NCBI GenBank assembly: GCA_947626825.1
Contig: CANQTM010000001.1
Location: 32,568-96,567, forward strand
Direction of reading: 5' to 3'
Origin: an uncultured Bacilli bacterium
Lineage (GTDB): Bacteria > Bacillota_I > Bacilli_A > RFN20 > CAG-631
DNA length: 64,000 nt
A program made the translations under genes and the position numbers. The notes under the pieces were generated by a model that was given only the letters and a program-made list of their open reading frames with translations, searched no databases and had not been told where the DNA came from. How positions within the stretch are numbered: the first letter of the stretch is position 1; every line of letters begins with the position of its first letter. Below, piece after piece: positions 4,996-55,197 of the stretch.

Positions 4996-5050
4996 CATAC
5001 AAATCACCAATAAAAAATATGATGAAAATTTTAAAATTATTACTTAAATA

Positions 5051-10197: not shown

Positions 10198-10239
10198 CAA
10201 TTATTTGTTATAATAGTTTAAACAAAGGTGGGATTTTTA

Positions 10240-12249
10240 ATGTTTAAAAAGATAAAAAAAGATAGAGGAAATATATTATTGATATTTCTTATAGAATTTA
10301 TTATTTCTATAAGTTTGGTTTTAATTGCTTTCTTCCTTGACAATTATGAAATAGTACATATCTATTCGATATATGTCATGCTTTTATATTTTATTTTGAT
10401 ATGTTTTATCAATATATTTTTAATGTCTCATTTTTTAAATAAAGCAGAAAAATATCTAAATAGAACAGATATTACGATTGCATCTATTTTTGGTAATGAA
10501 GTGGCTCCAGTATTCGAATTTGGCAATATTGTTATTTTAGTTTATAACGAAGTTGAAGAGATTATTTGGATTTCCCAAACCACTTTATTAAGGAAAGAAG
10601 ATATATTAGGGCAAAAAATATATGAATTGATTCCTAAATTTGATGAATTATCATTAATGAGTAATTCAAAAGACGTTTATGTTAATTTAAATGGTAAAAC
10701 ATTTCAAATTGAAATTAATATTGGTATGAGAGTCATTTATTTAAAAGATACAACATCTCAAGTATTGCAAAGTGAAAAAATGGAAATGGAAAGACCTTTT
10801 ATTGGCCATATTGTTATTGATAATTATCAAGATGTTTATGTTTCTTTACAAGAATCTTCATTTGTTTTACATGTAAGTGAAGTAAAAGAATTAATTAATA
10901 ATTTTGCTAAAAAATATAATTTATTTATTCGTTCTTATAATAATGATTCATTTTTAATTATTGGTGAAGAAGAAAATTATTTAAATATTGCTAAAGATAA
11001 ATTTTCTATCATGGATGAAATGCGTGAAATGGCTGAAAAAAATGATAATCCTTTAACAATATCAATTGGTATTGGAAAAGGTAATACCACAAGTATTTTA
11101 AGAACAAGTGAATTGTCTTATATGGCTTTAAATATGGCATTATCACGTGGTGGTGATCAAGTAGTTATTAATGCTTTTGGTAAACCATTAGAATATTATG
11201 GTGCCAAAAATGAAATAAAACAAACAAGATCCCATGTTAGAGGACGTGTTCTTGCTGCATCATTAGCAAATTTAGTTAAAGCTAGCAAAAATGTTATTAT
11301 CACTGGGCATAAAAATGCCGATTTTGATGCTATTGGAGCTTCTCTTGGTATCTATGCAATTTGTAAAAGTTTAAAGGCAAATGCTTATGTATTATATGAA
11401 GATGATTTAATTGAACTTTATACAAAACGTGCTTTTAAATCAACATTTACTTCATCTGAAATTTCAGAAATGACAATTTCCAATCAAAAAGCTTTGCAAA
11501 TTGCTACAGAACAAACTTTATTAATTATTGTTGATACGCATAATAAAGATATGATTTTATTACCTAAACTTGTAGACATATGTAAAGATATTTGTGTTAT
11601 TGACCACCATAGAAAAGGAGATTCATTTATTGACAATCCTATTTTCCAATATCATGAACCCCAATCAAGTTCTGCTTCCGAATTGGTTACTGAACTTATT
11701 TTCTATCAAGCTAATAAAGTAAATTTATCTGAAGATATTGCTAATTTCTTATTAGCAGGAATGAGCTTAGATACTAAATTTTTCAAGGTTGGCACTAGTG
11801 GTAAAACTTTTGAAATGGCTATGATTTTGAAAAATTATCAAGCAAGTAGTGAAGCTGTCAGCGATTTCTTTAGAGAAGAATATGAAGAGAAAAAATTATT
11901 AAGTAGTATTGTCAATAGTGCTACTGCCATCGCTGTAGGAATTTATATGGCAAAAGCTAGCGAAGATGATATTATTACTCGTACTACATTATCTAAAGTT
12001 GCAGATGAAATATTAGATATTAAAGGAGTTCAAGCTGTTTTTGTTATTGGTAGAACAGCTAAAAATCAAATATCTATTAGTGCAAGATCAACACCAGATT
12101 TTAATGTTCAATTAATTATGGAATCATTAGGTGGTGGGGGCCATTTTTCCAAAGCGGCCACTCAAATTGAAAATACTTCAGTTGAAAATGCTGCATCTGC
12201 TTTAAGAGAAAAAGTAAAAATATATTTACGAGATGGAGGACGCGTTTAG
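10240..12249 (+). CDS. gdpP: Cyclic-di-AMP phosphodiesterase GdpP (DHH/DHHA1)
   Basis: Two N-terminal TM helices, a PAS/GGDEF-like middle region, DHH motif VIDHHR, and DHHA1 GGGGH. AAAGGTGGG RBS before the ATG at 10240. Upstream of rplI-dnaB as in Bacilli. Confidence 0.8.
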   Translation: MFKKIKKDRGNILLIFLIEFIISISLVLIAFFLDNYEIVHIYSIYVMLLYFILICFINIFLMSHFLNKAEKYLNRTDITIASIFGNEVAPVFEFGNIVILVYNEVEEIIWISQTTLLRKEDILGQKIYELIPKFDELSLMSNSKDVYVNLNGKTFQIEINIGMRVIYLKDTTSQVLQSEKMEMERPFIGHIVIDNYQDVYVSLQESSFVLHVSEVKELINNFAKKYNLFIRSYNNDSFLIIGEEENYLNIAKDKFSIMDEMREMAEKNDNPLTISIGIGKGNTTSILRTSELSYMALNMALSRGGDQVVINAFGKPLEYYGAKNEIKQTRSHVRGRVLAASLANLVKASKNVIITGHKNADFDAIGASLGIYAICKSLKANAYVLYEDDLIELYTKRAFKSTFTSSEISEMTISNQKALQIATEQTLLIIVDTHNKDMILLPKLVDICKDICVIDHHRKGDSFIDNPIFQYHEPQSSSASELVTELIFYQANKVNLSEDIANFLLAGMSLDTKFFKVGTSGKTFEMAMILKNYQASSEAVSDFFREEYEEKKLLSSIVNSATAIAVGIYMAKASEDDIITRTTLSKVADEILDIKGVQAVFVIGRTAKNQISISARSTPDFNVQLIMESLGGGGHFSKAATQIENTSVENAASALREKVKIYLRDGGRV

Positions 12250-29514: not shown

Positions 29515-29603
29515 GAAGAAATACCCAAGCGGTTTAAGGGGGCAGTTTCGAAAACTGCTAGAGGTTAACACCTGCAAGGGTTCGAATCCCTTTTTCTTCG
29601 CCA
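29515..29603 (+). tRNA. tRNA-Ser (anticodon CGA)
   Basis: Acceptor stem GAAGAAA/TTTCTTC, anticodon stem GCAGT/ACTGC with loop TTCGAAA, long variable arm, T-arm AAGGG-TTCGAAT-CCCTT, discriminator G and encoded CCA. Confidence 0.8.
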
Positions 29604-31562: not shown

Positions 31563-33170
31563 ATGAAATATGTTTTTGTTACAGGCGGTGTTGTTTCAGG
31601 ATTAGGAAAAGGTATTGTAGCAGCTTCTTTAGGAAGATTACTAAAATGTAGAGGATTAAAAGTTGCAGCCCAAAAATTTGATCCTTATATGAATATTGAT
31701 CCTGGAACTATGAATCCAATTCAACATGGTGAAGTTTATGTAACTGAAGATGGCGCAGAAACAGATTTAGATTTAGGCCACTATGAAAGATTTATTGATG
31801 AAAATTTGACAAAATATTCAAACCTTACTAGCGGTAAGGTATTTTGGAAAGTTCTTAATAAAGAAAGGAATGGTGAATATGATGGACAAACAGTACAAAT
31901 TATTCCCCATGTTACAAACGAAATCAAACGATTTATTAAGAAAAATGCTGATTTAACACAAGCAGATGTTATGATTACTGAAATTGGTGGTACTATTGGT
32001 GATATTGAAAGTCAACCATTTTTAGAAGCAATTAGACAATTTTCTATTGAAGTTGGTCGTAAAAATTGTTTATTTATCCATGTATGTTTAGTACCATTTA
32101 TTGCTGGATCATATGAATTTAAATCAAAGCCAACACAACATTCAGTAAAAGAATTACAATCAAATGGTATTAATCCTGATATTATTATTACAAGATCTGA
32201 AACTGATTGTGGTGAAAAAATTCGTCAAAAAATAGCATTATTTTGCAATGTGGAAGAAGATTGTGTTATTCAAAATTCAACTGCTAAATGTTTATATGAA
32301 GTACCTTTGATGCTTCATAAAAATGGTTTAGATAAAGTTGTTTGTCGCAAATTTGGATTTAGAAAAAAATGTGATTTAACTATTTGGAAAGAAATGGTTA
32401 AGTCAATACATAGTAGAAAAAATAAAGTAACTATTGCCTTGGTTGGAAAATATGTTACTTTACATGATTCATATTTATCAATTATTGAGGCATTAAATCA
32501 TGCTTCATATGCTAATCATGTAAATGTTGAAATCAAATGGATTGATAGCGAAAAAGTAAAAAAATCAACTATTAAAAGCCTTTTTAAAGATGTTTATGGA
32601 ATTATAGTTCCTGGAGGATTTGGCAATAGAGGTATTGAAGGAATGGTTTTAACATGTCAATATGCAAGAGAAAAAAATATACCTTATTTTGGTATTTGTT
32701 TGGGCATGCAAGTTGCTGTTATTGAATATGCAAGAAATGTCGCAAAAATATCTGATGCCACTAGTGGTGAATTTTCAAATAATGGCAGTAAAGTTATTGA
32801 TATAATGGAAGATAAAAAAGGTAAAATTATTGGTGGAACAATGCGACTTGGTGCATATCCTTGTAAAATTAAAGATGATAGCATTATGCAAAGAGCATAC
32901 AATCAAGAACTTGTTGAAGAAAGACATAGACATCGTTATGAATTTAATAATGAATATAGAAAAATTTTAGTAGACAAAGGACTTTTTATTAGTGGAACAT
33001 CACCTGATAATAAAATTGTTGAAACTATAGAAGTAAAAGAAAACAAATTTTTTATTGGTGTTCAATTCCATCCAGAATTTAAAAGTAGACCTAATGCAGT
33101 TCATCCATTATTTTATCATTTTGTTAAATGCTCAATTGAAAAAATGGTAGGTGAGAATGTTGAAAAGTAA
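31563..33170 (+). CDS. pyrG: CTP synthase
   Basis: MKYVFVTGGVVSGLGKGI N-terminus. GATase domain GICLGMQ. Confidence 0.9.
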   Translation: MKYVFVTGGVVSGLGKGIVAASLGRLLKCRGLKVAAQKFDPYMNIDPGTMNPIQHGEVYVTEDGAETDLDLGHYERFIDENLTKYSNLTSGKVFWKVLNKERNGEYDGQTVQIIPHVTNEIKRFIKKNADLTQADVMITEIGGTIGDIESQPFLEAIRQFSIEVGRKNCLFIHVCLVPFIAGSYEFKSKPTQHSVKELQSNGINPDIIITRSETDCGEKIRQKIALFCNVEEDCVIQNSTAKCLYEVPLMLHKNGLDKVVCRKFGFRKKCDLTIWKEMVKSIHSRKNKVTIALVGKYVTLHDSYLSIIEALNHASYANHVNVEIKWIDSEKVKKSTIKSLFKDVYGIIVPGGFGNRGIEGMVLTCQYAREKNIPYFGICLGMQVAVIEYARNVAKISDATSGEFSNNGSKVIDIMEDKKGKIIGGTMRLGAYPCKIKDDSIMQRAYNQELVEERHRHRYEFNNEYRKILVDKGLFISGTSPDNKIVETIEVKENKFFIGVQFHPEFKSRPNAVHPLFYHFVKCSIEKMVGENVEK

Positions 33171-35247
33171 TATTTTAAATATATTTGAAAAAGATGTTTT
33201 TACTGATAAATTAATGAAAAAAAGTTTGTCAAAAAAAATTTATAAACAATATCAAAAATTAATTACCAATAAAACACCTTTAACGATAGATGTTGCAAAT
33301 GAAATTGCAAAAGCAATGAGAACGTGGGCTATGAAGAAAAAAGTAACTCATTTTACTCATTGGTTTCAACCACTTACTGGTATTACTGCTGAAAAACATG
33401 ATAGTTTTTTAGATAAAGATTTAAATAATAAACCAATAAGTATTTTCACAGGAAAATCATTAATTAAAGGTGAACCTGATGCGAGTTCTTTTCCAAGTGG
33501 TGGAATGAGGAGTACTTTTGAAGCAAGAGGTTATACAGTTTGGGATCCAGCATCACCAGTTTTTATTCTAAATAATACTTTATATATTCCTACTGCCTTT
33601 TGTTCATATAGTGGAGAAGCTTTAGATAAAAAAACACCTTTATTAAAAAGTATTGAACTTTTAGATGAAAAAGCCACAAAACTTTTAAGCATATTAGGCT
33701 ATCAAGTTGATAAAGTTGATACAACAGTAGGTGCTGAACAAGAATATTTTTTAATAGATAAAGAAGTATATAAAAAAAGAATCGATTTAATGAATTGCGG
33801 ACGAACTTTATTTGGAGCAAGACCAGTAAAAGGACAAGAATTAGACGATCATTATTTTGGTCAAATTAAAAATCGTGTTGCAAATTATATGGCTGATTTA
33901 GATAAAAAGTTATGGGCTGTTGGTATTTATTCAAAAACGGAACATAACGAAGTTGCTCCTGCACAACACGAACTTGCTTCAGTATATGCTTATACTAATG
34001 TTGCTACTGATAATAATCAATTAACAATGACAATTATGAAACAAACGGCTTTTGAACACCAAATGGTTTGCTTATTACATGAAAAGCCTTTTGAATATAT
34101 AAATGGTAGTGGTAAACATAATAATTGGTCTTTATCGGCTAATAATGAAAATCTATTAAATCCAACTAAAAATCCTAAAAATAATATTAGATTTTTATTA
34201 CTTTTAACAGCAATTATCGAAGCTGTTGATAAATATAGTGATCTTCTTAGAATATCTGTTGCCAGTGCTAGCAATGATCATAGGTTAGGTGCAAATGAAG
34301 CACCACCAGCAATTATTTCTATTTTTCTAGGAAATGAATTAACAGATATTTTAGATTCTATTGAACAAAGTAAAGATTATCATCAAAAAATTCGTGAAAG
34401 AATTGATTTAAAAATTCAATCAATTCCTGAACTTATTAAAGATACATCCGATAGAAACAGAACGTCGCCATTTGCTTTTACAGGTAACAAATTTGAATTT
34501 AGAATGGTAGGTTCAAGTCAATCACTTGCAGATCCTAATATGATTTTAAATCTTATCGTTGTAAGTGTTTTAGATGATTATATTAAAGAATTAGAAAATG
34601 CTACTAATGTTCCTGAAAAAGCATTAGAAATTATAAAAAAATCTTATAAAAACCATAAAAGAATTATTTATAACGGAAACGGTTATTCAAAAGAATGGTT
34701 AGAAGAAGCAAAGGCAAGAGGACTTAATAATTTAAAAGATACTGTTTCTTCATTACAATGTTTATTAGAAAAGAAAAATATTGATTTGTTTGAAAAATAT
34801 CACATTTTTTCTGAAAAAGAACTGCACGCACGTTATGAAATATTGTTAGAAAATTATTATAAAACAATATATATTGAAGCAGAGACAATGTGTGAAATGT
34901 TATATAAAAATATTTTGCCCGACATTTTTTCATATAAAAATTTCCTTGCTTTAGAAATTCATAATTTAGAAAAAATAAAATGTAGCGCTATTTATGAAAA
35001 AGAACTTTTAAATAAAATAAATGATTTATGTGATAGAATTAATGTTAGTGCTAAAAAATTAACAAATACTATTGAAAAATTTAAAATGGAAAACGATACA
35101 TATTCTAAAGCAAAATATTGTCATGATGTAATGTTATCGTCAATGGAATTTTTGCGTAAAGATGTTGATAATATTGAACCATTAATTCCTAAACAATTTA
35201 ATAGTTTGCCAACATATGCAGATATTTTATATAGCGTCAATGATTAA
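33151..35247 (+). CDS. glnN: Glutamine synthetase type III (GlnN-like)
   Basis: ~700-aa GS with N-terminal TVGAEQEYFLID and catalytic-domain motifs. Overlaps the pyrG stop. Exact start uncertain (GTG at 33151 or ATG at 33157). Confidence 0.65.
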   Translation: MRMLKSNILNIFEKDVFTDKLMKKSLSKKIYKQYQKLITNKTPLTIDVANEIAKAMRTWAMKKKVTHFTHWFQPLTGITAEKHDSFLDKDLNNKPISIFTGKSLIKGEPDASSFPSGGMRSTFEARGYTVWDPASPVFILNNTLYIPTAFCSYSGEALDKKTPLLKSIELLDEKATKLLSILGYQVDKVDTTVGAEQEYFLIDKEVYKKRIDLMNCGRTLFGARPVKGQELDDHYFGQIKNRVANYMADLDKKLWAVGIYSKTEHNEVAPAQHELASVYAYTNVATDNNQLTMTIMKQTAFEHQMVCLLHEKPFEYINGSGKHNNWSLSANNENLLNPTKNPKNNIRFLLLLTAIIEAVDKYSDLLRISVASASNDHRLGANEAPPAIISIFLGNELTDILDSIEQSKDYHQKIRERIDLKIQSIPELIKDTSDRNRTSPFAFTGNKFEFRMVGSSQSLADPNMILNLIVVSVLDDYIKELENATNVPEKALEIIKKSYKNHKRIIYNGNGYSKEWLEEAKARGLNNLKDTVSSLQCLLEKKNIDLFEKYHIFSEKELHARYEILLENYYKTIYIEAETMCEMLYKNILPDIFSYKNFLALEIHNLEKIKCSAIYEKELLNKINDLCDRINVSAKKLTNTIEKFKMENDTYSKAKYCHDVMLSSMEFLRKDVDNIEPLIPKQFNSLPTYADILYSVND

Positions 35248-35356: not shown

Positions 35357-36760
35357 ATGCAAAAAGATCAAATATTAGAAATCTTAAATGCCGCTTTGTC
35401 AAGTGGTGGTGATTACAGTGAATTATTTTTTGAAGATACGAATTCTAGAAATTATTTATTAGAAAATAGCAATGTTTCTACTGCCCTAACTTCAAATGTT
35501 TATGGCTGTGGAATTAGAATTTTGAAAAAAGATAAATGTGTATATGGATATACTAATGATATTTCTTTTAATAATTTATTAAAAATGGCTAATTCTTTAA
35601 AAGATAGTTTTGAAGGAGAAAGAATTCTTAAAGTTACTAAATTAGAAAATGTTAAGAGTGCAAATCGTAATAAACCTATAATACCATATGATAAAATGCC
35701 ATTAGATAAACAAATTTCTTTATTAAAAGAAGCTAGTGAAGTGGCATTAAATTATGATGAAAGAATCAAAAAGGTGGATATAAATTATAGTTTTAAAACA
35801 CAATTAGTAACTATATATAATAGCGATGGTAAAATAGTAAAAGATAGCCGTACAAGAGGCCGAGTTTATATAAATGCAATTGCTGTTAAACCAAATGCTA
35901 TGCAAGTTGGTGGAAAAGGCCCAGGGGCACAACGTGGCTTTGAATTTTTTAATGAATTAATAGATTTAAAAGAATATGCCAAAGAAGCAGCAAGAATTGC
36001 TATTACAATGTTAGATGCTGATGATTGTCCATCAGGAGAAATGCCTGTCATTATTGATAATGGTTTTGGTAGTGTTATTTTCCATGAAGCTTGTGGACAT
36101 GGCCTAGAGGCAAGTTCAGTTTCTAAAAATTTATCGATATTTTCAAATAAAAAAGGCCAAAAAATTGCTTCAAATATTGTAAATGCTTTTGATGATGGAA
36201 CAATTGCTGGTGGTTGGGGTTCTGGAAATTTTGATGATGAAGGCAATCCAACACAACGAACACAACTTATTAAAGATGGTGTTTTAATAAATTATTTAGT
36301 TGATAATTTTAATGGTCGAGCTATGAATGAAAAAGGAAATGGTGCTTGCCGAAGAGAATCATATAAATATGCACCAACTTCAAGAATGTCAAATACTTTC
36401 ATTGGCAATGGTACATCAACAAAAGAAGAAATTATTGCTAATACTAAGTTTGGCTTATATGCAAAATCTTTAGGTGGCGGTTCTGTAAATCCAACAACAG
36501 GAGATTTTAATTTTGCAGTTCAAGAAGGATATTTAATTGAAAATGGTAAAATAACAAAACCTGTGAAAGGTGCTACATTAATTGGCAATGGTGCAAATAT
36601 TTTATTTAATATTGATATGGTTGGTAATAATCTTTTAAGAGAACAAGGAATGTGTGGTGCCGCATCTGGTTCAATTCCAGCTGATGTTGGACAGCCAACA
36701 ATAAGAGTTAAATCAATTTTAGTTGGTGGAACAGGAGGAAAAATCAAAAATGAACTTTAA
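35357..36760 (+). CDS. tldD: TldD-family metalloprotease
   Basis: HEACGHGLE motif. GGAGG RBS. Confidence 0.75.
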   Translation: MQKDQILEILNAALSSGGDYSELFFEDTNSRNYLLENSNVSTALTSNVYGCGIRILKKDKCVYGYTNDISFNNLLKMANSLKDSFEGERILKVTKLENVKSANRNKPIIPYDKMPLDKQISLLKEASEVALNYDERIKKVDINYSFKTQLVTIYNSDGKIVKDSRTRGRVYINAIAVKPNAMQVGGKGPGAQRGFEFFNELIDLKEYAKEAARIAITMLDADDCPSGEMPVIIDNGFGSVIFHEACGHGLEASSVSKNLSIFSNKKGQKIASNIVNAFDDGTIAGGWGSGNFDDEGNPTQRTQLIKDGVLINYLVDNFNGRAMNEKGNGACRRESYKYAPTSRMSNTFIGNGTSTKEEIIANTKFGLYAKSLGGGSVNPTTGDFNFAVQEGYLIENGKITKPVKGATLIGNGANILFNIDMVGNNLLREQGMCGAASGSIPADVGQPTIRVKSILVGGTGGKIKNEL

Positions 36761-38069
36761 TAAATATTTTTCATATGCAAAAGAAAAAGGCTTTTCAGAT
36801 ATTGAATTTAAAACAATAACTCATAATAACTTAGCTATTCAAATTTTTCATAAAAATGTTGAAAATTATCAAATATCAGAAAATGAAGTTATTTATATTA
36901 GAGGCATTTTTAATGGTAATTTAGTTTCAGGTCAAACAGAAAATAAAAACAATATTACTGATATTATTGATATTATGGCTTTAAATGCTAAATTAATTGA
37001 TGAAAAAAAAGAACAAGAAATATTTAAAGGATCAGATAAATATAAAAATTTTAAAACATATAATGATTCTTTCAATCAAAAAAGTTCAAATGAAAAAATT
37101 AATATGTGCTTAGAACTTGAAAATAAAGCATATGATTATGATTCAAGGATTGTTGATGTGGAAGAAGTATCTTATGAAGAAGTTACTTCAGCTATGAAAA
37201 TAGTTAATTCAAAAGGTCTAAAACTTTCATATAAAGTTAATTATGCAATGCTTGTTTTATCTGTTGTTGCAAAAAGTGAAAGTGATGTGCGTACTAGTTT
37301 TTCTTATCAAGTAAAAGATAACCCTAATGATTTTGATTTAGATTATCTTGTTAAAAAAGCCTGTGATGATGCTATTAATTCTTTAGATGGTCAACAAATT
37401 AATTCTAAAAAATATAAAGTGATTTTATCACCAAATGTTTTTGCTTCTTTTGTTTCATTTTTACTAGAATCAGCATCAGGAGAAAAAATTAACAAAGATA
37501 AATCGCTTTTAAAAGATAAATTAGATAAAGAAATAGCGTCTAAAAAACTAACAATCATTGAAAATCCATTAAATAAAAATTATCCATATTATTATAGAGC
37601 ATTTGATGATGAAGGTGTTGCAACTTATAAAAAAACAATTATAGATAAAGGAATATTAAAAACATATCTTTATAATATTGAAGAAGCCAAAGTTGCTAAA
37701 GTAAATTCTACAGGTAATGGCTATGGTGGTTCAAAAATTGGTATTACTACATCTTTTGTAGAAATAAAACCAAGCAAAAAATCATTAGATGATTTATGTC
37801 TAATGGTTAAAGATGGAGTTTTAATAAATAATGTTCATGGTCTTCATGCTGGCATGAATCCATTATCAGGAGATTTTTCTTTACAAGCAAGCGGCTATAT
37901 AATTGAAAATGGTAAAATTGCCAAACCAGTGAATCTTATTACCATTGCTGGTAATTTGTTTGAAATGTTTAAAGATATTAAAGAAGTAGGAAATGATATC
38001 TTTGTAACTTATGGTGGTATTTCAACACCATCAGTATTTATAAAAAAATTGGCAATATCAAGTAAATAA
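36750..38069 (+). CDS. pmbA: PmbA/TldE-family protein (TldD partner)
   Basis: PmbA_TldD fold. GGAGGA RBS before the ATG at 36750. Overlaps the tldD end. Confidence 0.65.
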   Translation: MNFNKYFSYAKEKGFSDIEFKTITHNNLAIQIFHKNVENYQISENEVIYIRGIFNGNLVSGQTENKNNITDIIDIMALNAKLIDEKKEQEIFKGSDKYKNFKTYNDSFNQKSSNEKINMCLELENKAYDYDSRIVDVEEVSYEEVTSAMKIVNSKGLKLSYKVNYAMLVLSVVAKSESDVRTSFSYQVKDNPNDFDLDYLVKKACDDAINSLDGQQINSKKYKVILSPNVFASFVSFLLESASGEKINKDKSLLKDKLDKEIASKKLTIIENPLNKNYPYYYRAFDDEGVATYKKTIIDKGILKTYLYNIEEAKVAKVNSTGNGYGGSKIGITTSFVEIKPSKKSLDDLCLMVKDGVLINNVHGLHAGMNPLSGDFSLQASGYIIENGKIAKPVNLITIAGNLFEMFKDIKEVGNDIFVTYGGISTPSVFIKKLAISSK

Positions 38070-38081
38070 AAACAATCGAAA

Positions 38082-38118
38082 AGAAGTGGCCCACTACAAC
38101 CACTTCTTTTCTTTTTTT
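38082..38118. terminator. Bidirectional rho-independent terminator
   Basis: gaagtgg/ccacttc hairpin followed by a T run. Lies between convergent genes. Confidence 0.55.
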
Positions 38119-38153
38119 ACACACAAACTTATCGCTTGAGAACAGTAGACAAT

Positions 38154-38522
38154 TTAATTTTTGATTGGTAATGCTAGTTTTATTTGATTTGCATATTCAC
38201 TAGCCATTAAACCAACAACTAGTGTGACTTTATTTGTTGATTTAACAATACCAATACCAGCTAATTTAAGTTTATCATCATCTATTTTTTTATAATCTTT
38301 TAAGACTAATGATAATCTTGAAGCAATAGCTTTAACTTCAAGAATGTTATTTACTCCGCCAACCGCTAAAATAATATTTTGATAATATTGTTTAGCATCA
38401 GCATTGATTGCTTTTTTCTTTTTTAAAGCAACTAAATAAATAATTAAAAAAGTAACTAAAGCAATTATTAATAAAGCAGCAATGATTGAAACAATTAAAA
38501 TAATAATTTCTTGTGTTGTCAT
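38154..38522 (-). CDS. Membrane-anchored PTS EIIB(Glc)-like domain protein lacking the phosphorylatable Cys
   Basis: N-terminal TM helix. AVGGVNNILEVKAIASRLSLVLKD aligns to the EIIB(Glc) motif GGxxNIxxxxxCxTRLR with Cys->Ala and RLR->RLS. Confidence 0.5.
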   Translation of the reverse strand: MTTQEIIILIVSIIAALLIIALVTFLIIYLVALKKKKAINADAKQYYQNIILAVGGVNNILEVKAIASRLSLVLKDYKKIDDDKLKLAGIGIVKSTNKVTLVVGLMASEYANQIKLALPIKN

Positions 38523-38532
38523 ATTTCTACCC

Positions 38533-39162
38533 CTATAAAATTTTCTTTAAATTTTCTTTAAGTTTATCATAGGCTTTTTGGGTTAAATGAATACCATCTA
38601 GTGTATCATCAAGACTTAATGAATCATTTTTGTCAGCTAAGATTTTATATAAATCAAATACTTGAATGTTATCTTTTGGATTGTCCATTTTTCTAATTAA
38701 TTCATTAAGACCTTTAACCTTTAAAATATCACGACAAGCAGGATAAATGTTTTCAACATGTTTAGCTTCATAATAACAAGGTGGAGTAATTGTTGCTATA
38801 ATAATTCTAACATTAGGTAAATTTTCTTTTAACATGTAAACAATATCATGAATATTATTTATAATTTGTTCTAAAGTATAACCATCGCAAATATCATTGC
38901 TGCCAATAAATAGATATACTATTTTTGGATGTATAGCAATAACACGATCAGTTAATGTCATCAAAACGCCTTGACTTTTATCTGATACGATCCCCCTATT
39001 TATACATTTTAAATTAAAATCACTAACATCCATCATCTCTACTATTGAATCTCCAAGAAAACAAATATCACATGAATCATTTGTTTTGTTTTCTTCCATA
39101 AATTGATTCATTCTATCATAGAAATGTTGATATGTTTGAAAGATAACTTTGTTCATAACCAT
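38533..39162 (-). CDS. SGNH/GDSL-family hydrolase (cytoplasmic)
   Basis: Blocks CFLGDSIVE, LFIGSNDI and DGIHLT. Confidence 0.6.
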   Translation of the reverse strand: MVMNKVIFQTYQHFYDRMNQFMEENKTNDSCDICFLGDSIVEMMDVSDFNLKCINRGIVSDKSQGVLMTLTDRVIAIHPKIVYLFIGSNDICDGYTLEQIINNIHDIVYMLKENLPNVRIIIATITPPCYYEAKHVENIYPACRDILKVKGLNELIRKMDNPKDNIQVFDLYKILADKNDSLSLDDTLDGIHLTQKAYDKLKENLKKIL

Positions 39163-39264
39163 CCTTTATTTATTGCTATTTTGTGTCTTGTATAGCTCAA
39201 GAAATTTTATAAATTAATTATAGCAAATAATTAAAGTGATTAGCAATTTAAAATAACAACATTA

Positions 39265-40761
39265 TTATCTTTGCACTTGAGGTGCTTGTATATTATTATC
39301 ATCTTCAGAAAAATATTGATAGTATTTATAATTATAGTAATGATAATAACTTGAACCTCTATATGCTTTCTTTTTGATGCCATTTAAAACAAAACCTAAG
39401 ACAGGAATTTTTGAAAATTCTATCTTTTTCATTGTTGCATCTAACGAATTATTTGTTGTTACTTCATAACGAACAGCTAGAACAATTCCTGAAATAACTT
39501 TAGATAATTCTAAGACATCTGTAACTGCATTAATTGGAGGAGTATCAATGATGATATAATCATATGTACTACTCAATTCTTCTACTATGATTTTCATTTG
39601 TGCTGAACCTAATAGTTCAGATGGATTTGGGGGTAGCGGCCCAGCACAAATTAAATCCAAATTTGGAACGACATCTTTTTTAATGCTTTCATCCATAGTA
39701 CTATCTTTACTAATAAGCGTTGATAGTCCTTTTTCATTAATCACATTAAAAATTTTGTTTTGCTGATTTTTTCTTAAATCAGCATCTATTAACAATACCT
39801 TCTTGCCGGCTTCAGCTAAGGCAATAGACATATTAGCAGCTAATATTGATTTTCCTTCACTTGGATTAGCACTACTTACAGCTAAAATTTTCTTTTCAAA
39901 AGGTGATAGAGAAAAAATGACATTCATTCTAATTGTTTTAAAACTTTCCGTAATATAAAATGGAGTTTCTTCATCTGTTATTTTAAATGGATGAACCTGT
40001 TTTTCCTTTTTCTTTTTTTCGCTTGAATATTGTAAAACTTCTCCAATAATAGGCTTTTTATATTTTTTATCTAATATTTCTGTAGATTTAATAGTGTTGT
40101 CTATAGCGTCTAAAAACAAACATACTAAAACACTTATTATAAAACCTAAAATTAAACCAATTAAAGTATTTGAAAATAAATTTGGAGATACAGGTATTTT
40201 ATAAACAAAAGCATCTTCTGTTTTTTGTAATTCTCCTGCATTAATGGCCTTTTCAGTTGATGGCTTACTTTCTGAAAATAAAGCATTACATAGAGCTGCA
40301 GATAAATATGGATCTTTTGTTGTTGCTTCCACATTTATGACATTTGTATCTTCTTTATAACGAATAGAATAACATTTCTTAATTGATGAAGTTTTAACTT
40401 TATTATCACTACTAAAACTAAAATTATTTTTTAATACATCATTACTAATGTAATATGTTTCTTTATAATCAGTTGATTGCAATTTAGCATAAACATCTTC
40501 AATTACTTTATCATCTAATAACACTTCTATAAAAGTATTAGCAAGTTTCTTTGATTCAACTATATCTTGTTCACTATTTGGCAAATTGGAATTCTTTTCA
40601 ATGCGAACATAGAAATTCATATGTGATGAATATTTAGGTGCTATCAATGTTTTGGTAACTGTAAAAGCTACTAGCCCAGCACAAAATGTAATTAAGATAA
40701 TTAATTTTATTTTTGACAGTAATAAACTAAAAAAGTTTCTTACAGAGTAGTTGCTGTTCAT
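39265..40761 (-). CDS. Fused Wzz chain-length-determinant / BY tyrosine-protein kinase (Wzc/CapAB-like)
   Basis: Two TM helices flank a periplasmic-type Wzz region. Walker A SANPSEGKS, A' VLLIDADLR, Walker B IIIDTPP, and a C-terminal Tyr cluster YRGSSYYHYYNYKYYQYF. GGAGAAAAA RBS before MNSNYSV. Confidence 0.75.
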   Translation of the reverse strand: MNSNYSVRNFFSLLLSKIKLIILITFCAGLVAFTVTKTLIAPKYSSHMNFYVRIEKNSNLPNSEQDIVESKKLANTFIEVLLDDKVIEDVYAKLQSTDYKETYYISNDVLKNNFSFSSDNKVKTSSIKKCYSIRYKEDTNVINVEATTKDPYLSAALCNALFSESKPSTEKAINAGELQKTEDAFVYKIPVSPNLFSNTLIGLILGFIISVLVCLFLDAIDNTIKSTEILDKKYKKPIIGEVLQYSSEKKKKEKQVHPFKITDEETPFYITESFKTIRMNVIFSLSPFEKKILAVSSANPSEGKSILAANMSIALAEAGKKVLLIDADLRKNQQNKIFNVINEKGLSTLISKDSTMDESIKKDVVPNLDLICAGPLPPNPSELLGSAQMKIIVEELSSTYDYIIIDTPPINAVTDVLELSKVISGIVLAVRYEVTTNNSLDATMKKIEFSKIPVLGFVLNGIKKKAYRGSSYYHYYNYKYYQYFSEDDNNIQAPQVQR

Positions 40762-41076
40762 AAATATTTTTCTCCTTTTGTAGATATATTTTTTGAAAAA
40801 AGGCAATAATAAAAATAAGTCATCTTTCGCGTTTATGCTTAAAATGGTTATTAAATATCTACGAAATGATTATATTACTTATTAATTTGTAATTTCAAGA
40901 AAAATTTTTTAAAAAAGTATTGCATATTTGATAAATTATGTAATATAATATATATTTTTGTAAAAAAATAAAAAAATATGTCGAAAATCACTAATTTTTT
41001 ATTTGAATCACAAATTATCAATAAAAATAAAAAAAGAATTTGTAATTTTTTAAAGAAGGATACATTTTTAAATCTT

Positions 41077-41365: not shown

Positions 41366-41826
41366 TTATTTTTTTTCGTTCCAAATTCTTCTTGATTCAT
41401 TTAATGATATACTATTAGCTCCACCATCGCTATCAGGATATGTTTCTCCATATGTTTCATTTTCCCACCCGCATATTGGACAAATGTCATAATCATCAAC
41501 ATCTTTAAAAGTATATTTACCACATACTGGGCATTTATGTTTTATTGGCTTTGGGGCAATTGATGATAAATAATTATAATTTTTGTTTTTCTTTCTTAAT
41601 TTTAAAAAATTATTTCTTAATTCTTCTATATCATGGCCTTCTGAATCTTTAGCTTTTGGATTTTCTAGTTGCTCAAGATTATATTTCCAACCACAAATAT
41701 AACAAAAGCGATCTAATCCATCTTCCCCCCTCATTAATTAGAATTTTGGTTAATTTGGGAAAATAAAATTCGTTGCACACAGGGCATTTAGTTGGTCTAT
41801 ATTTTTTTTCCTTCATGTTATTTTTC
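41366..41826 (-). pseudogene. Tandem CPCC-family cysteine-rich zinc-ribbon protein, frame broken at a G6 (C6 on + strand) homopolymer
   Basis: ATG at 41826 (MKEKKYRPTKCPVCNEFYFPK...) continues into the annotated 41366..41734 frame only if the G-run at 41725-41730 is one base shorter. The C-terminal CPVCGKYTF..YDICPICGWE..GGANSISL matches the CPCC domain. Confidence 0.5.
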
Positions 41827-52514: not shown

Positions 52515-52871
52515 TTATGGTCTAAATCTTGGCACATAACTAATATCTTCATTATTTCTTGAATCTCCATTAACTACTAATGGTAATGGTTCCTCATTAA
52601 CTATTTTACCCGTTATAACATCATTTCCAACAGTATTATAAGGTATATTATTATATTGAGGATATTGCATTGAATTAGTTGGCAATATTTGTGTGTTATA
52701 GGCGTATGGATTATAGTTATAGAATTGTTGAGGTGGATAATTATAGTATGGTTGTTGATTGAAATAACCATTGTTGTAATATGGATATTTATTATTTTCT
52801 ACTGCAGCGCCACCGACACCACCAATAACAAGTCCACCTAAGAAAGGAATTAGTCTATCATCATTTCTCAT
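52515..52871 (-). CDS. Hypothetical protein with an N-terminal glycine-zipper helix and Tyr/Asn/Gln/Pro-rich low-complexity region
   Basis: LIPFLGGLVIGGVGGAAV followed by YPYYNNGYFNQQPYYNYPPQQFYNYNPYAYNTQ. Confidence 0.45.
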   Translation of the reverse strand: MRNDDRLIPFLGGLVIGGVGGAAVENNKYPYYNNGYFNQQPYYNYPPQQFYNYNPYAYNTQILPTNSMQYPQYNNIPYNTVGNDVITGKIVNEEPLPLVVNGDSRNNEDISYVPRFRP

Positions 52872-52882
52872 AAAAAAACCTC

Positions 52883-53464
52883 CTAATTTATCATATGATA
52901 ATTAGAAGATCTTGGATATTTTAAATATTTTTTTAATTTATAAATTGGTAATCCAACGATATTATTGTAATCGCCTTTAATTTTTGTAATAAATTTTTTT
53001 GCTTCACCTTGAATTGCATATGCACCAGCTTTATCATAAATTGTTTTTAATTGACAATATAAATTAATTTCTTGTTCTGTTAATTCTTTAAAAGTCACTT
53101 TACTAGTACATGAAAACTTTTTTAAATAATTTTCTTTAATTATGCAAACTCCTGTAATAACTAAATGAGTTTTACCTGATAATAATGAAATCATTCTTTT
53201 TGCATCTTCTTCATCTTTTGGCTTTCCAAGAATTTGTTTATCAATCAAAACAATTGTATCAGCGCCAATAATTAAACTATCTGGATGCTTTTGATATATC
53301 TCTAATGCTTTTTGTGTTGCCAAATGTTTTGAAATAGATTTTAAAGGCCATTTATTATCGATAATTTCTGGATTTTTAGGAACGTCAATAGTAAATTGAT
53401 CACAAATTTTATTTAATAATTCTTTTCTTCTTGGTGATTTACTTGCTAAAACAATCGGTAACAT
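52883..53464 (-). CDS. maf: Maf-family nucleoside triphosphate pyrophosphatase
   Basis: LASKSPRRKELL N-terminal motif. Confidence 0.8.
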   Translation of the reverse strand: MLPIVLASKSPRRKELLNKICDQFTIDVPKNPEIIDNKWPLKSISKHLATQKALEIYQKHPDSLIIGADTIVLIDKQILGKPKDEEDAKRMISLLSGKTHLVITGVCIIKENYLKKFSCTSKVTFKELTEQEINLYCQLKTIYDKAGAYAIQGEAKKFITKIKGDYNNIVGLPIYKLKKYLKYPRSSNYHMIN

Positions 53465-53466
53465 AA

Positions 53467-55197
53467 TTAGTCTCTTTTAATAAGTATTACTGGAATAACA
53501 ATTGGTTCTCTTTGAGTTCTTTCAAATACAAACTCAGAAGTAGCCTTTTTAATGGTATTTTTAATATCAGTAAGACTTACTCTTTCTTTCAATAATTTAC
53601 TTAAAGCATCATATACTACTCTTTCAGCTTCAACTAATAGTTCTCCCCATTCTTTTAAGAAAATAAAACCTCTTGAAACGATTGATGGTGGTTTAAGCAT
53701 GTTCATGTTTTTAATATCTATAGGTACAACTACAGATATTAAGCCATCATTTCCTAAACGAATTCTATCTTTAATTACATTTTCATCGATTCCATTAATA
53801 TCTTTACCATCAATATATTTAGTGGCTATTTCTAATTTTTTACCTCTTCGAACTTCACCTTTATACATTACTAAAATATCGCCATTTTCACATATAAATG
53901 TTTTATCTTTATTAACAATTCCAACCATTACTGCTAAATCAGCATGTAATTTTAGCATTCTATATTCACCATGAATTGGCATAAAATATTTTGGACGTAC
54001 TAATTTTAACATTAATTTCAATTCTTCTCTTTGTGCATGTCCAGAAGTATGAATTGAATATAAAGAACTATTAACAATAACTTCAGCGCCTTGCTTTGAC
54101 AACATATTAATTACTTTAGTTACTGGAGCTAAATTTCCAGGAATTGGATTTGATGAAAATACAACAGTATCTCCTGGAATTATTTTAATTACTTTATGTG
54201 TATTATTTGCAATTCTACTTAATGCTGCCATTGGTTCACCTTGTGAACCTGTACATAAAATTAATAATTCATTTAAGTTTTGATATGCAGAAATTTTAGC
54301 TGTTTCAATATCGTAAATATAATTATCTGGACATCTAATATATCCGAGTTTACGACCTGTTGAAATAGCGTTTTCCATTGAACGACCAAAAACTAGAATT
54401 TTACGATTATATTTTACTGAAGCCTCAATTATTTGTTGAATTCTATGTACATTACTTGCAAATGTAGCAATAATAATTCTTCCAGTAGCATTTTTAAAGA
54501 TTTCATGTAATGATTTTGCAACATCTCTTTCAGATTTTGAAGAACCTTCAACTTCGGCATTTGTTGAATCAGCCATGTATAAAGTGACACCTTGGTCACC
54601 TAAAGTGGCAATTTTTGAAATGTCAATATCTTGACCTATAGGTGTTAAATCTATTTTAAAATCACCAGTTTCAACAATTCTACCATTTGGTGTATCAATA
54701 CAAACACCTAATGAATCAGGAATAGAGTGTGTTGTTGCAAAAAAAGAAATTTTCATAGCTCCAATTTTTATAATATCATTTGGATCTATTTCTTTAATTC
54801 TAGTTAAATAGTTTAAATTATCTTCATCTAATTTATTTTTAATTAATCCAGCTGTTAATTTTGAAGCGTAAATAATAGGAATATTAACGGTTTGAATTAA
54901 AAAAGGAATGCCACCAATATGGTCTTCATGACCATGAGTGATAATCAAGGCTTTAATTTTAGATCTGTTTTTAATTAAATGTTGAAAATCGGGAATAACA
55001 TAATCGATTCCTGGTAATTCATTTTCGGGGAATTTGACACCAGCATCAATGATAATCATACTATTTCCATGTTCAATACAATACATGTTTTTTCCGATTT
55101 CATTAAGTCCACCTAAAGCATAAATATAAGTTTTTACTAACTTGTTTTCTAAATCTTGATTGCTAGACGCACCTAAATTATTTTGTTTAACTTCCAT
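53467..55197 (-). CDS. rnj: Ribonuclease J
   Basis: HxHxDH motif THGHEDHIG in a beta-CASP MBL architecture. Confidence 0.9.
   Translation of the reverse strand: MEVKQNNLGASSNQDLENKLVKTYIYALGGLNEIGKNMYCIEHGNSMIIIDAGVKFPENELPGIDYVIPDFQHLIKNRSKIKALIITHGHEDHIGGIPFLIQTVNIPIIYASKLTAGLIKNKLDEDNLNYLTRIKEIDPNDIIKIGAMKISFFATTHSIPDSLGVCIDTPNGRIVETGDFKIDLTPIGQDIDISKIATLGDQGVTLYMADSTNAEVEGSSKSERDVAKSLHEIFKNATGRIIIATFASNVHRIQQIIEASVKYNRKILVFGRSMENAISTGRKLGYIRCPDNYIYDIETAKISAYQNLNELLILCTGSQGEPMAALSRIANNTHKVIKIIPGDTVVFSSNPIPGNLAPVTKVINMLSKQGAEVIVNSSLYSIHTSGHAQREELKLMLKLVRPKYFMPIHGEYRMLKLHADLAVMVGIVNKDKTFICENGDILVMYKGEVRRGKKLEIATKYIDGKDINGIDENVIKDRIRLGNDGLISVVVPIDIKNMNMLKPPSIVSRGFIFLKEWGELLVEAERVVYDALSKLLKERVSLTDIKNTIKKATSEFVFERTQREPIVIPVILIKRD

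Follow-up and report, generated by a model that had tools for sequence, protein, structure and literature searches.

A membrane-tethered EIIB(Glc)-like protein family lacking the phospho-acceptor cysteine in uncultured Bacilli

Proteins of the PTS are textbook transport components that double as regulators, and to our knowledge their regulatory action always proceeds via the phosphorylation state. The contacts of Mlc on IICB(Glc) have been located by cryo-EM at Arg424, Arg426, Ser428, Val450, and Gln456, with Cys421 outside the interface, and a work in the reference list of that article found that Mlc is inactivated by localisation to the membrane as such (PMC13482132). In Enterococcus faecalis, OG1RF_10478 is an orphan EIIB-like protein that its authors derive from PTS EIIB and for which a regulatory role has been suggested (PMC10773906).

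Here, we describe a protein of 122 amino acids, referred to as EIIBL, which is encoded in a 64 kb stretch of DNA from an uncultured Bacilli bacterium (the window, i.e., the whole stretch analysed). The initial annotation had considered this protein a membrane-anchored EIIB(Glc)-like domain without the phosphorylatable cysteine, located apart from EIIC and EIIA and likely to serve as a regulatory or decoy module.

The EIIBL gene, its fold, and its membrane anchor

The coding sequence of EIIBL (38154..38522, minus strand) was assigned from the open reading frame and from matches to PF00367 and a family HMM; it begins with ATG, ends with TAA, and is preceded by an RBS-like AGGGG 8–12 nt 5′ of the start. 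Directly upstream, across a 10-nt gap, lies the gene of an SGNH/GDSL hydrolase without signal peptide or transmembrane (TM) helix (38533..39162, minus strand; PF13472 62.3 bits, PF00657 55.2 bits), and beyond it the gene of a Wzz (chain-length determinant) domain fused to a BY tyrosine autokinase (39265..40806, minus strand; TIGR01007 190.8 bits, PF02706 Wzz, C-terminal Tyr cluster). A promoter-like site is located between the two latter genes at 39246–39217, although such sites are not enriched over shuffled sequences. The SGNH-EIIBL unit is closed by an intrinsic-terminator-like hairpin (38078..38111, minus strand), which comprises a 14-pair stem with 5 G–C pairs and a T-rich tail and additionally serves the convergent PmbA gene; four terminator-like sites were observed versus 1.1 expected. 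An Rfam scan of the window found no RNA element near EIIBL, its sole match being a tRNA at 29515–29600. An alternative genetic code with TGA as Trp is unlikely, all long ORFs being intact under table 11 and the checked stops being TAA or TAG. The exact EIIBL sequence occurs on nine contigs of the NCBI, ENA, and Logan assemblies. The EIIBL ORF is a real, functional, and conserved gene.

The EIIB(Glc) fold proposed for the protein was borne out by profile searches and by structural superposition. Briefly, PF00367 matches EIIBL with 30.8 bits (E 1.9e-7; gathering cut-off 27) over the entire profile, positions 1–34 of 34, and the NCBIfam model TIGR01998, which covers IIB within the Nag IIBC transporter, matches with E 7.6e-10. 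The domain (residues 44–118; 38169..38393, minus strand) was delimited by the AF2 model, Foldseek, and HMMER alignment to the IIB domain of PtsG. The model has a pLDDT of 93.6 and the order α-β-β-α-β-β-α in the domain, and its best Foldseek matches in the PDB are the E. coli IIB(Glc) chains 1o2f_B, 3bp3_A, and 3bp8_C, with an rmsd of 1.3–1.6 Å over 72–74 residues and target-normalised TM scores of 0.79–0.86. As modelled, the EIIBL domain is a split α/β-sandwich of the IIB(Glc) fold. Among the relatives described below, 86 of 98 match PF00367 (E ≤ 0.01) and 97 of 98 match TIGR01998, and Glc/Nag-type IICB transporters are the nearest canonical relatives of the family.

The single N-terminal TM helix, a further claim of the initial annotation, is likewise well founded. 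It spans residues 6–33 (38424..38507, minus strand), with a mean Kyte-Doolittle hydropathy of 3.34 in its best 19-mer, and is followed by KKKK; the AF2 model contains a continuous helix over residues 3–53. No K or R precedes the helix, whereas four are found in the 15 residues after it, and K+R are more numerous after the helix than before it in 95 of 98 members (mean 5.1 vs 1.1). An N-out, C-in orientation is therefore predicted from the KKKK segment, by which the EIIBL domain would face the cytoplasm while tethered to the membrane.

The degenerate active site and the extent of the family

The residues equivalent to those of PtsG were obtained from an ungapped HMMER alignment of EIIBL to 1o2f_B. 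The active-site loop, A-C-x-T-R-L-R in canonical proteins, is degenerate in EIIBL and reads A65-I66-A67-S68-R69-L70-S71 (38310..38330, minus strand; codons GCT ATT GCT TCA AGA TTA TCA in the reverse complement). Cys421 of PtsG thus corresponds to Ile66, between Ala65 and Ala67, whereas Thr423 corresponds to Ser68, Arg424 to the retained Arg69, and Arg426 to Ser71. The initial annotation was correct that the cysteine is missing, although it placed the replacement one position off, at an Ala; its replacement of the TRLR arginine by Ser holds for the second Arg and not for the first. Cys is found in none of the 98 aligned relatives, nor does any appear at the active site of EIIBL itself, in agreement with the proposed non-phosphorylatable domain; the column varies among K, N, R, T, V, S, I, and M, and a substitute nucleophile is absent. 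The second Arg of TRLR is kept in only 1 of 98 members. With Ile66 in place of the phospho-acceptor Cys and Ser71 in place of the second catalytic Arg, EIIBL would be unable to relay phosphate from EIIA to sugar, and the domain is predicted from its sequence not to serve as a PTS phosphocarrier.

Other positions are strongly retained. Ser68, Arg69, Lys98, Gly55, and Asn59 are 90–100% conserved in the family, with Ser68 in 96, Arg69 in 95, Lys98 in 90, and Thr100 in 81 of 98 sequences, and Lys94 is common; Lys98 and Thr100 occupy the positions of Gly454 and Gln456 of PtsG. Variation at the Cys position and at several surface positions around it would not be expected if a universal, conserved partner such as EIIA or HPr docked there, and it counts against a docking function.

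A word-indexed search with the single EIIBL protein gave a near-identical copy only, and the family emerged in an exhaustive search that returned 371 representatives at E ≤ 1e-3, among which 97 of the best 150 share the single-domain architecture. The hallmark of the family (the window protein and 97 relatives) is a stand-alone protein of 95–145 amino acids in which one N-terminal TM helix is followed by a stalk rich in K and R and then by a single IIB domain; the homologues are not EIIC fusions. The signature is GG-x-[DE]-N-I-x6-G-S-R-[LIV] plus a downstream K-[IV]-T-L-V-x-G; the window protein, with I-A-S-R-L-S and K98-V-T-L-V, conforms to the loop pattern x-[G/S/A]-S-R-[LIV]-x, whose first residue is any but Cys, and has the Lys at the start of β4. 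Scores of the family HMM, which was built from alignment A1, are bimodal: members form the upper mode of at least 75 bits (75–132), canonical EIIB proteins score 35–52, and the window ORF, at 110.2, falls among the members. All sources that bear a name are uncultured metagenome-assembled genomes (MAGs) labelled Bacilli, Erysipelotrichaceae, or 'Mollicutes'. A description of the family was not found in a literature search, and within that scope EIIBL is a coherent, previously undescribed family. Public annotation labels its members 'PTS transporter subunit EIIB' or 'hypothetical'; metabolic reconstructions of gut MAGs may therefore count a non-working PTS component. The model NF046005, an 'MPN207a family PTS transporter accessory protein', is described as a small membrane protein of the glucose PTS in Mollicutes; membership of EIIBL was rejected, with 10.9 bits (E 0.42) against a cut-off of 45 and a match to the TM segment only.

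Genomic neighbourhood, origin, and possible roles

Two subfamilies differ in gene order. The larger one, for which 27 GTDB-species loci were obtained by a genome-contig search with a tight subfamily-1 alignment, has the order CYTH/NAD kinase-EIIBL-Maf-RNase J, and this synteny is kept in 26 of the 27 loci; gene order is conserved in metagenome loci as well. The subfamily of the window, drawn from encoding contigs and one metagenome scan, has NagA divergent from an SGNH-EIIBL pair, with gaps of 1–18 nt in five lineages (window, L013, L014, L015, and L070/L071); a genome-contig search with alignment A3 found no related loci. The SGNH gene is missing beside EIIBL in L016 and L069 of the window's subfamily and in the entire larger subfamily. 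Thus, the position of EIIBL is conserved in relatives, whereas the SGNH partner accompanies it in part of one subfamily only. The neighbourhood gives no hint of function, since EIIBL is co-transcribed with NAD kinase in some loci, with the SGNH hydrolase in others, and with no other gene in the rest.

Components of the PTS are absent from these neighbourhoods, as the initial annotation had noted for EIIC and EIIA. In the 64 kb window, Pfam scans of the other ORFs of at least 120 amino acids found no further EIIB, EIIC, or EIIA. Searches with 22 canonical EIIBC(A) proteins matched the EIIBL gene alone in the window and in all family loci, and no PTS gene was found beside EIIBL within ±6–8 kb in about 50 related loci. 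Nor was a ROK or PRD regulator found near any member, and cre (CcpA) boxes were found neither upstream of 34 family genes nor in the operon region of the window; these absences count against a docking function.

With the phospho-Cys lost, EIIBL probably binds a partner instead of transferring phosphate. By alignment, Arg69, Ser71, Val73, Lys94, and Thr100 correspond to Arg424, Arg426, Ser428, Val450, and Gln456 of PtsG, and we infer that the conserved residues of EIIBL lie on the exposed β-sheet face that docks EIIA, EIIC, and Mlc in genuine IIB(Glc). The reading favoured here, with a probability somewhat better than even, is that EIIBL serves as a docking module, tethered to the membrane and devoid of catalytic activity, whose ancestor may have been the last TM helix plus IIB domain of a Glc/Nag-type EIICB. 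EIIBL would be a bitopic inner-membrane protein with a very short outside N-terminus and one TM helix, and a short basic helical stalk would keep the EIIB(Glc)-fold domain near the membrane on the cytoplasmic side. By binding, and without catalysis, it would dock or sequester a partner from the cytoplasm on the inner membrane surface; the candidate partner is either a protein that recognises the surface of unphosphorylated IIB(Glc) or a ligand that is anionic or phosphorylated. The proposed 'regulatory or decoy module' fits the conserved docking face and, by analogy, the E. coli Mlc precedent.

The origin of EIIBL is suggested by a locus in an Erysipelotrichaceae MAG (L068:6711-8294), whose product is a divergent EIIC with a Cys-less IIB at its C-terminus (527 amino acids; NCBI name 'PTS transporter subunit EIIC'). 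Its EIIC part matches PF02378 with 33.3 bits, its loop reads T-P-D-K-L-T, its score of 49 bits with the family HMM is in the canonical range, and its IIB is homologous to the EIIBL family with an hhalign probability of 97.9%. The fusion gene adjoins CYTH-NADK and is divergent from FtsW/RodA, neighbours common to EIIBL loci. Furthermore, EIIBL matches TIGR02002 and PRK11089 in a colinear manner across the last TM helix, the linker, and IIB. From this colinearity, the one fused example, and the shared neighbours, EIIBL may have originated as the last TM helix and IIB of a Glc/Nag-type EIICB in which the IIB was already dead.

Two other roles are each considered unlikely. In the first, EIIBL would be a membrane anchor or accessory subunit for the cytoplasmic SGNH (O-acetyl) esterase in amino-sugar or envelope-polysaccharide metabolism. 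The close spacing of the SGNH-EIIBL pair in five lineages and its divergence from nagA agree with such a role, as do the BY-kinase gene that precedes it in the window, the lack of a TM helix or signal peptide in the SGNH protein itself, and the polysaccharide cluster that follows in L013 (Bac_transf, two GT4 glycosyltransferases, and epimerases). It is opposed by the larger subfamily, in which EIIBL stands without SGNH (26 of 27 GTDB loci), and by L016 and L069, which keep EIIBL at the same place without SGNH and NagA. Furthermore, between the window and L013 the SGNH protein is far better conserved than EIIBL (84.5% vs 57% amino-acid identity), and co-variation was not seen. EIIBL as a whole diverges faster than its neighbours in this comparison (57% vs 84–85% for SGNH and NagA; whole-gene dN/dS 0.41), an observation that also counts against a docking function.

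In the second role, similarly improbable, EIIBL would be a trans-acting non-catalytic IIB of an EIIC-type permease encoded elsewhere; it would dock on the cytoplasmic face of EIIC and thereby gate or stabilise a sugar carrier that is independent of the PTS or competes with it. That a homologous Cys-less IIB is retained with a divergent EIIC in the L068 fusion agrees with this role, as do the Glc/Nag-type kinship of the family and the predicted-helical short stalk, which would hold the domain at the membrane surface. Nevertheless, only this one fused example is known, the EIIC gene is missing within ±6–8 kb of about 50 loci and from the window, and EIIBL has lost Arg426, on which transfer to sugar depends in real IIB, so that its EIIC-facing chemistry would have changed.

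That the EIIBL ORF is a decaying, functionless leftover of EIICB (last TM helix and IIB) is largely refuted by its conservation and is very improbable. In favour of such decay, EIIBL has the same order of parts as the C-terminus of EIICB, the catalytic residues are gone, and the gene evolves faster than its neighbours, with a dN/dS of approximately 1.3 in the TM/linker part; by contrast, the dN/dS of the domain is 0.19 between the window and L013 and 0.06–0.21 in eight closer pairs. Intact ORFs of equal length and motif are found in approximately 100 divergent clusters, Ser68, Arg69, Lys98, Gly55, and Asn59 are conserved, and the chromosomal position is kept in 26 of the 27 species-level genomes. 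In L001, a metagenome contig of 99% identity, 51 bp (17 amino acids) of the TM region are deleted in frame. Since coverage of this contig is 1.4x and the adjacent PmbA gene has a further deletion, of 34 bp, the change is probably an assembly artefact and was rejected as evidence of decay. The EIIBL gene is chromosomal, present in one copy, inherited vertically, and subject to purifying selection.

A tie of EIIBL to the BY-kinase as substrate, modulator, or scaffold in capsule/exopolysaccharide control is hardly credible, despite adjoining genes on a common strand in the window and conserved Tyr46, Tyr47, and Tyr110 in its subfamily, since a 100-nt gap with the promoter-like site noted above separates the kinase from SGNH-EIIBL and the kinase adjoins EIIBL in this window alone and in none of the other related loci; the kinase is thus probably outside the EIIBL unit, and of the two neighbours named in the initial annotation, both present here, it was rejected as a family trait.

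Comparison with known systems

EIIBL is homologous to EIIB(Glc) of PtsG and NagE/NagP (PF00367, TIGR01998, PDB 1O2F/3BP3/3BP8), with the same split α/β fold, and retains GG-x-x-N-I, Thr/Ser423, Arg424, and the V-x-D motif; as in the C-terminus of IICB, a TM helix precedes the domain, which is predicted to be cytoplasmic. Unlike EIIB(Glc), EIIBL lacks the phospho-acceptor Cys and Arg426, has the family-specific Lys98 and Thr100 in place of Gly454 and Gln456, and is a stand-alone protein of 95–145 amino acids with its own TM helix, neither fused to nor encoded beside EIIC or EIIA. The L068 EIIC-IIB shares with EIIBL a homologous, Cys-less IIB and the CYTH-NADK and FtsW/RodA neighbours, although it has a full divergent EIIC and lacks even the Ser-Arg pair. 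OG1RF_10478 is likewise a small stand-alone EIIB-derived protein; in contrast to EIIBL, it is of the Chb/Lac type with a REC-like fold, no TM helix is mentioned for it (PMC10773906), and its sequence is unrelated to PF00367.

A family that has kept the docking face and discarded the phospho-Cys would show that binding by IIB is selectable alone. A bolder proposal, considered doubtful, is that EIIBL is a lineage-wide core pseudo-EIIB of uncultured gut Bacilli, the natural counterpart of an engineered membrane-anchored IIB. It would have arisen from a truncated EIICB with a dead IIB and become, independently of sugar transport, a hub that docks or sequesters a regulator, a PTS protein, or an envelope enzyme at the membrane. 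If true, the signalling components derived from the PTS would gain a new class that works without phosphotransfer. The family additionally gives simple, testable access to regulation in Erysipelotrichales-like bacteria, most of which are uncultured although they abound in gut and rumen samples.

Mlc sequestration by PtsG in E. coli differs from the present case in that a ROK/Mlc-type regulator was not found near any EIIBL member and in that Arg426, which forms a salt bridge to Glu144 of Mlc, is Ser/Thr/Asn in the family. The hosts of EIIBL are Bacillota, in which we know of no Mlc. In the E. coli system, including engineered membrane-anchored IIB, any membrane anchor joined to an unphosphorylated IIB(Glc) suffices to inactivate Mlc. 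EIIBL has the same architecture, with conserved residues that, by analogy, occupy positions equal to the Mlc contacts in the cryo-EM structure (PMC13482132).

The EIIB(Glc)-like domain and its altered active site

The open reading frame proposed in the initial annotation is present at 38154-38522 (-) (122 aa, ATG start, TAA stop), and its product belongs to a membrane-tethered, Cys-less EIIB(Glc)-like family, referred to here as EIIBL. The protein carries an EIIB domain. Residues 48-81 cover the entire PF00367 profile with 30.8 bits, exceeding the Pfam gathering score of 27 and upholding the original EIIB(Glc) assignment; among NCBIfam models, the top match is to TIGR01998 (GlcNAc-specific IIBC), in its C-terminal IIB part (E 7.6e-10). 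The AlphaFold2 model, built on 98 relatives (mean pLDDT 93.6), comprises a single long helix (residues 3-53) formed by the transmembrane (TM) segment, the stalk and domain helix 1, followed by a beta-beta-alpha-beta-beta-alpha order. The PDB structures closest to this model are the E. coli IIB(Glc) chains 1o2f_B, 3bp3_A and 3bp8_C, with an rmsd of 1.3-1.6 A over 72-74 residues and a target-normalised TM-score of 0.79-0.86.

Residue equivalences with PtsG, the E. coli glucose permease IICB(Glc), were taken from an ungapped HMMER alignment to 1o2f_B. Cys421 of PtsG aligns with Ile66, and the phospho-acceptor is therefore absent; Thr423, Arg424, Arg426, Ser428, Val450, Gly454 and Gln456 correspond to Ser68, Arg69, Ser71, Val73, Lys94, Lys98 and Thr100, respectively. 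The Cys had been described as replaced by Ala and the TRLR arginine by Ser: the Cys is indeed missing, but the aligned residue is Ile66, lying between Ala65 and Ala67, and only the second Arg is lost (Ser71), the first being kept as Arg69. When the window protein is aligned with 97 relatives, none of the 98 sequences has Cys in column 66, which is occupied by Lys (22), Asn (17), Arg (12), Thr (9), Val (9), Ser (7), Ile (6) and Met (5) among others, in agreement with the description of the domain as non-phosphorylatable. Because the residue at this position is variable and non-nucleophilic, a substitute phospho-acceptor at that site is ruled out. The second-Arg column (71) is similarly mixed (Ser 39, Thr 13, Asn 12, Val 11, Arg 1), whereas Gly55 and Asn59 are invariant, Ser68, Arg69, Lys98 and Thr100 are found in 96, 95, 90 and 81 of the 98 sequences, and position 67 is Gly in 66. 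As judged from the alignment, the EIIBL protein cannot act as a phosphocarrier.

The single N-terminal TM anchor likewise stands: the predicted helix of the window protein is preceded by no Lys or Arg and followed by KKKK, and in 95/98 members Lys+Arg residues are more numerous in the 15 residues after the hydrophobic segment than in the whole N-terminal flank (on average 5.1 after versus 1.1 before). By the positive-inside rule, this distribution would place the IIB-like domain in the cytoplasm, held at the membrane via a stalk of ~10 residues that AlphaFold2 predicts to be helical. EIIBL is thus both membrane-anchored and non-phosphorylatable.

Extent and conservation of the EIIBL family

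A word-indexed search with the window protein found nothing beyond one near-identical copy, and HMMER, run exhaustively against 1.84 billion cluster representatives, returned 371 proteins at E<=1e-3. Among the best 150 of these, 97 are single-domain proteins of 95-145 aa with one Cys-less EIIB-like loop motif and, by hydropathy analysis, a hydrophobic N-terminal segment; the relatives are hence not EIIC-fused. Most of the others in the best 150 are either soluble proteins with tandem EIIB domains or fragments of EIIC tails, in which C-x-T-R-L-R is present. The tandem proteins ranking among the best matches (P0006, P0007, P0019, P0024, P0034, P0049 and P0051) are soluble, 250-430 aa long and without EIIC, and contain 3-5 EIIB(Glc) domains, most repeats keeping the Cys (C-A-T-R-L-R or W-C-S-T-R). 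PF00367 is still matched by 86/98 EIIBL members and TIGR01998 by 97/98, and a family HMM gives members 75-132 bits (window ORF, 110) versus 35-52 bits for canonical EIIBC(A), with zero overlap. As a family, EIIBL is a conserved pseudo-EIIB of uncultured gut-type Bacilli. The named sources are all MAGs, labelled Bacilli, Bacillales, Erysipelotrichaceae, Erysipelotrichales, Coprobacillus, Izemoplasmatales or Mollicutes, and public annotation of the proteins reads 'hypothetical protein' or 'PTS transporter subunit EIIB'. The identical window protein is recorded in NCBI, ENA and Logan assemblies (longest contig, 120,405 bp). Membership in NF046005 ('MPN207a accessory protein') was rejected, the match (E 0.42) being limited to the TM segment.

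Between the window and L013, the locus of the closest related species, whole-gene EIIBL shows 57% amino acid identity and a dN/dS of 0.41, compared with 84.5% and 0.13 for the SGNH hydrolase and 85.4% and 0.11 for NagA. By region, dN/dS is 0.19 in the IIB domain and ~1.3 in the TM/stalk, the latter consistent with constraint on hydrophobicity only; eight closer pairs within one subfamily (subfamily 1) give 0.06-0.21. These ratios, the conserved motifs and the synteny together exclude a pseudogene. An ENA contig 99% identical to the window (ERZ27248973 NODE_35068, 1590 bp), compared with 37300-39500, lacks 51 bp of the EIIBL TM helix, the deletion being in frame and flanked by similar AT-rich repeats; since its coverage is 1.4x and a further 34 bp are missing from the adjacent PmbA gene, these differences are more probably assembly artefacts than true variants.

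Chromosomal position, host and origin

In the window, EIIBL is separated by 10 nt from the upstream SGNH/GDSL hydrolase gene (38533-39162 (-)), whose TAG stop is overlapped by the RBS-like AGGGG of EIIBL, and is followed by a strong hairpin terminator (38111-38078 (-)). This bidirectional terminator is common to the convergent TldD/PmbA metallopeptidase pair (35357-38069 (+)), the genes of which overlap by 38 nt. Upstream of the SGNH gene, a Wzz-type transmembrane modulator and a BY tyrosine autokinase form a single 513-aa polypeptide with a C-terminal Tyr cluster (39265-40806 (-); TIGR01007, 190.8 bits). To our knowledge, Bacillota seldom have the two fused in this Wzc-like manner; genes for a glycosyltransferase, flippase or phosphatase were not found nearby. 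Both neighbours named in the initial annotation are accordingly in place, but the kinase adjoins EIIBL in the window only and is missing from the syntenic locus of relatives, rendering that association incidental. In L013 (3526-10174), a 350-nt gap separates the SGNH-EIIBL pair from a downstream APH-family kinase and a cluster for polysaccharide synthesis (Bac_transf, two GT4 glycosyltransferases, and epimerases of the Polysacc_synt_2 and other types); in place of these, the window has the BY-kinase, on the other side of the pair. Between the BY-kinase and nagA lies a gene for a 122-aa Cys-rich CPCC-family zinc-ribbon protein (41366-41734 (-); PF14206, 70 bits), not present in the relatives' syntenic loci.

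Two EIIBL subfamilies each have their own conserved chromosomal position, with one copy per locus. Subfamily 1 (motif K-M-S-N-K-I-T-L-V) shows the order <-CYTH (NADK->) EIIBL-> <-Maf <-RNase J <-Def, then YlbF-> RsmD-> CoaD->, in 26/27 GTDB species loci and in metagenome loci, EIIBL in many starting 1-3 nt past the NAD kinase gene. In subfamily 2, which includes the window, EIIBL adjoins an Alr / <-RlmH <-RNase T <-NagA block; the SGNH-> EIIBL-> pair (gaps of 1-18 nt) occurs in the window, L013, L014, L015 and L070/L071, and L016 and L069 have EIIBL at the same spot without SGNH and NagA. A third group (P0200), from spore-formers, is divergent from an FtsW/RodA/SpoVE gene. The window's Maf-RNase J slot (52883-55197) contains no EIIBL gene. 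Downstream of maf is a 118-aa ORF (52515-52871 (-)) with a very high content of Tyr, Asn, Gln and Pro (e.g., YNNGYFNQQPYYNYPPQQFYNYNPYAYNTQ), and the loci L002 and L006 have small unannotated ORFs at the equivalent place, between EIIBL and maf. No EIIB, EIIC or EIIA gene lies within +/-6-8 kb of any member, extending the earlier statement that no EIIC or EIIA is nearby to the other EIIBL loci.

The window (25.8% G+C, standard bacterial code) encodes cotE, bacA, alr and housekeeping operons, from which the host is taken to be a walled, spore-forming, low-GC Bacillota; type III glutamine synthetase (33151-35247 (+); GSIII_N, 248.6 bits), the CotE spore-coat protein (4510-5010 (-)) and the GdpP c-di-AMP phosphodiesterase (10228-12249 (+)) are markers of the same placement. 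Two large ORFs at 88-1836 (+) and 2348-4438 (+) (582 and 696 aa) match no Pfam family at E<=1e-4.

The PtsG-type models TIGR02002 and PRK11089 match EIIBL colinearly from the TM helix through IIB (residues 5-114 versus model 379-496), and the architecture therefore corresponds to the last TM, linker and IIB of a Glc/Nag-type IICB. In the MAG Erysipelotrichaceae bacterium CGS6M4-bin48, L068:6711-8294 (+) encodes a 527-aa EIIC-IIB-like fusion (NCBI name 'PTS transporter subunit EIIC') with a divergent EIIC (PF02378, 33.3 bits) and a C-terminal Cys-less IIB-like domain (loop S-T-P-D-K-L-T) homologous to EIIBL (hhalign probability 97.9%). The gene adjoins <-CYTH NADK-> and is divergent from FtsW/RodA, and so has neighbours in common with subfamily 1 as well as with the P0200 group. 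These similarities suggest that EIIBL arose from a dead-IIB permease of this kind by loss of the EIIC body, and the fusion is possibly the ancestral form. The same MAG also encodes a canonical EIIBCA (L052), indicating a PTS in that lineage at least.

Proposed function and comparison with known systems

Conservation in EIIBL is concentrated in the fold core and in a polar, basic patch on strands beta2 and beta4 (Ser68, Arg69, Lys98 and Thr100, often with Lys94 and Ser96), which by alignment would correspond to the surface around the phospho-Cys in real IIB(Glc). In the Mlc:IICB(Glc) cryo-EM structure, Mlc contacts Arg424, Arg426, Ser428, Val450 and Gln456, and Cys421 is outside the interface (PMC13482132). 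Family-conserved EIIBL residues align with these Mlc-contact positions of PtsG. Membrane localisation itself, and not IICB binding, inactivates Mlc, according to an earlier finding cited in the reference list of PMC13482132. Together, these data would make a TM helix carrying an unphosphorylatable IIB(Glc) a naturally occurring counterpart of the minimal construct engineered for sequestration, and for this reason we lean slightly towards EIIBL being a membrane-tethered, non-catalytic docking module. Its partner might be a regulator, an EIIA(Glc) domain or an EIIC that recognises unphosphorylated IIB(Glc), in subfamily 2 the co-transcribed SGNH hydrolase, or an anionic or phosphorylated small ligand. 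A universal PTS partner is made less likely by the variable Cys-position residue and by the absence of PTS or regulator genes linked to EIIBL. No cre box was found upstream of EIIBL in 34 loci. The 'regulatory or decoy' role initially proposed is plausible by analogy.

No account of an IIB(Glc) family that is both Cys-less and TM-anchored was found in full-text literature searches. The family has no bearing on any long-standing open question; to a PTS specialist, the loss of the Cys throughout a strongly conserved family with a natural 'minimal tethered IIB' architecture would be unexpected. EIIBL is homologous to the functional EIIB domain (PF00367) but is without its three defining features, namely the Cys, the second Arg and the EIIC/EIIA association, and the label 'PTS transporter subunit' is not appropriate for it. 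Its single TM helix and unphosphorylatable IIB(Glc) match the minimal architecture of the engineered Mlc sequestration construct. Among published EIIB derivatives that are orphan and presumably regulatory, the one precedent found is E. faecalis OG1RF_10478, whose Chb-type fold is unrelated to that of EIIBL (PMC10773906).
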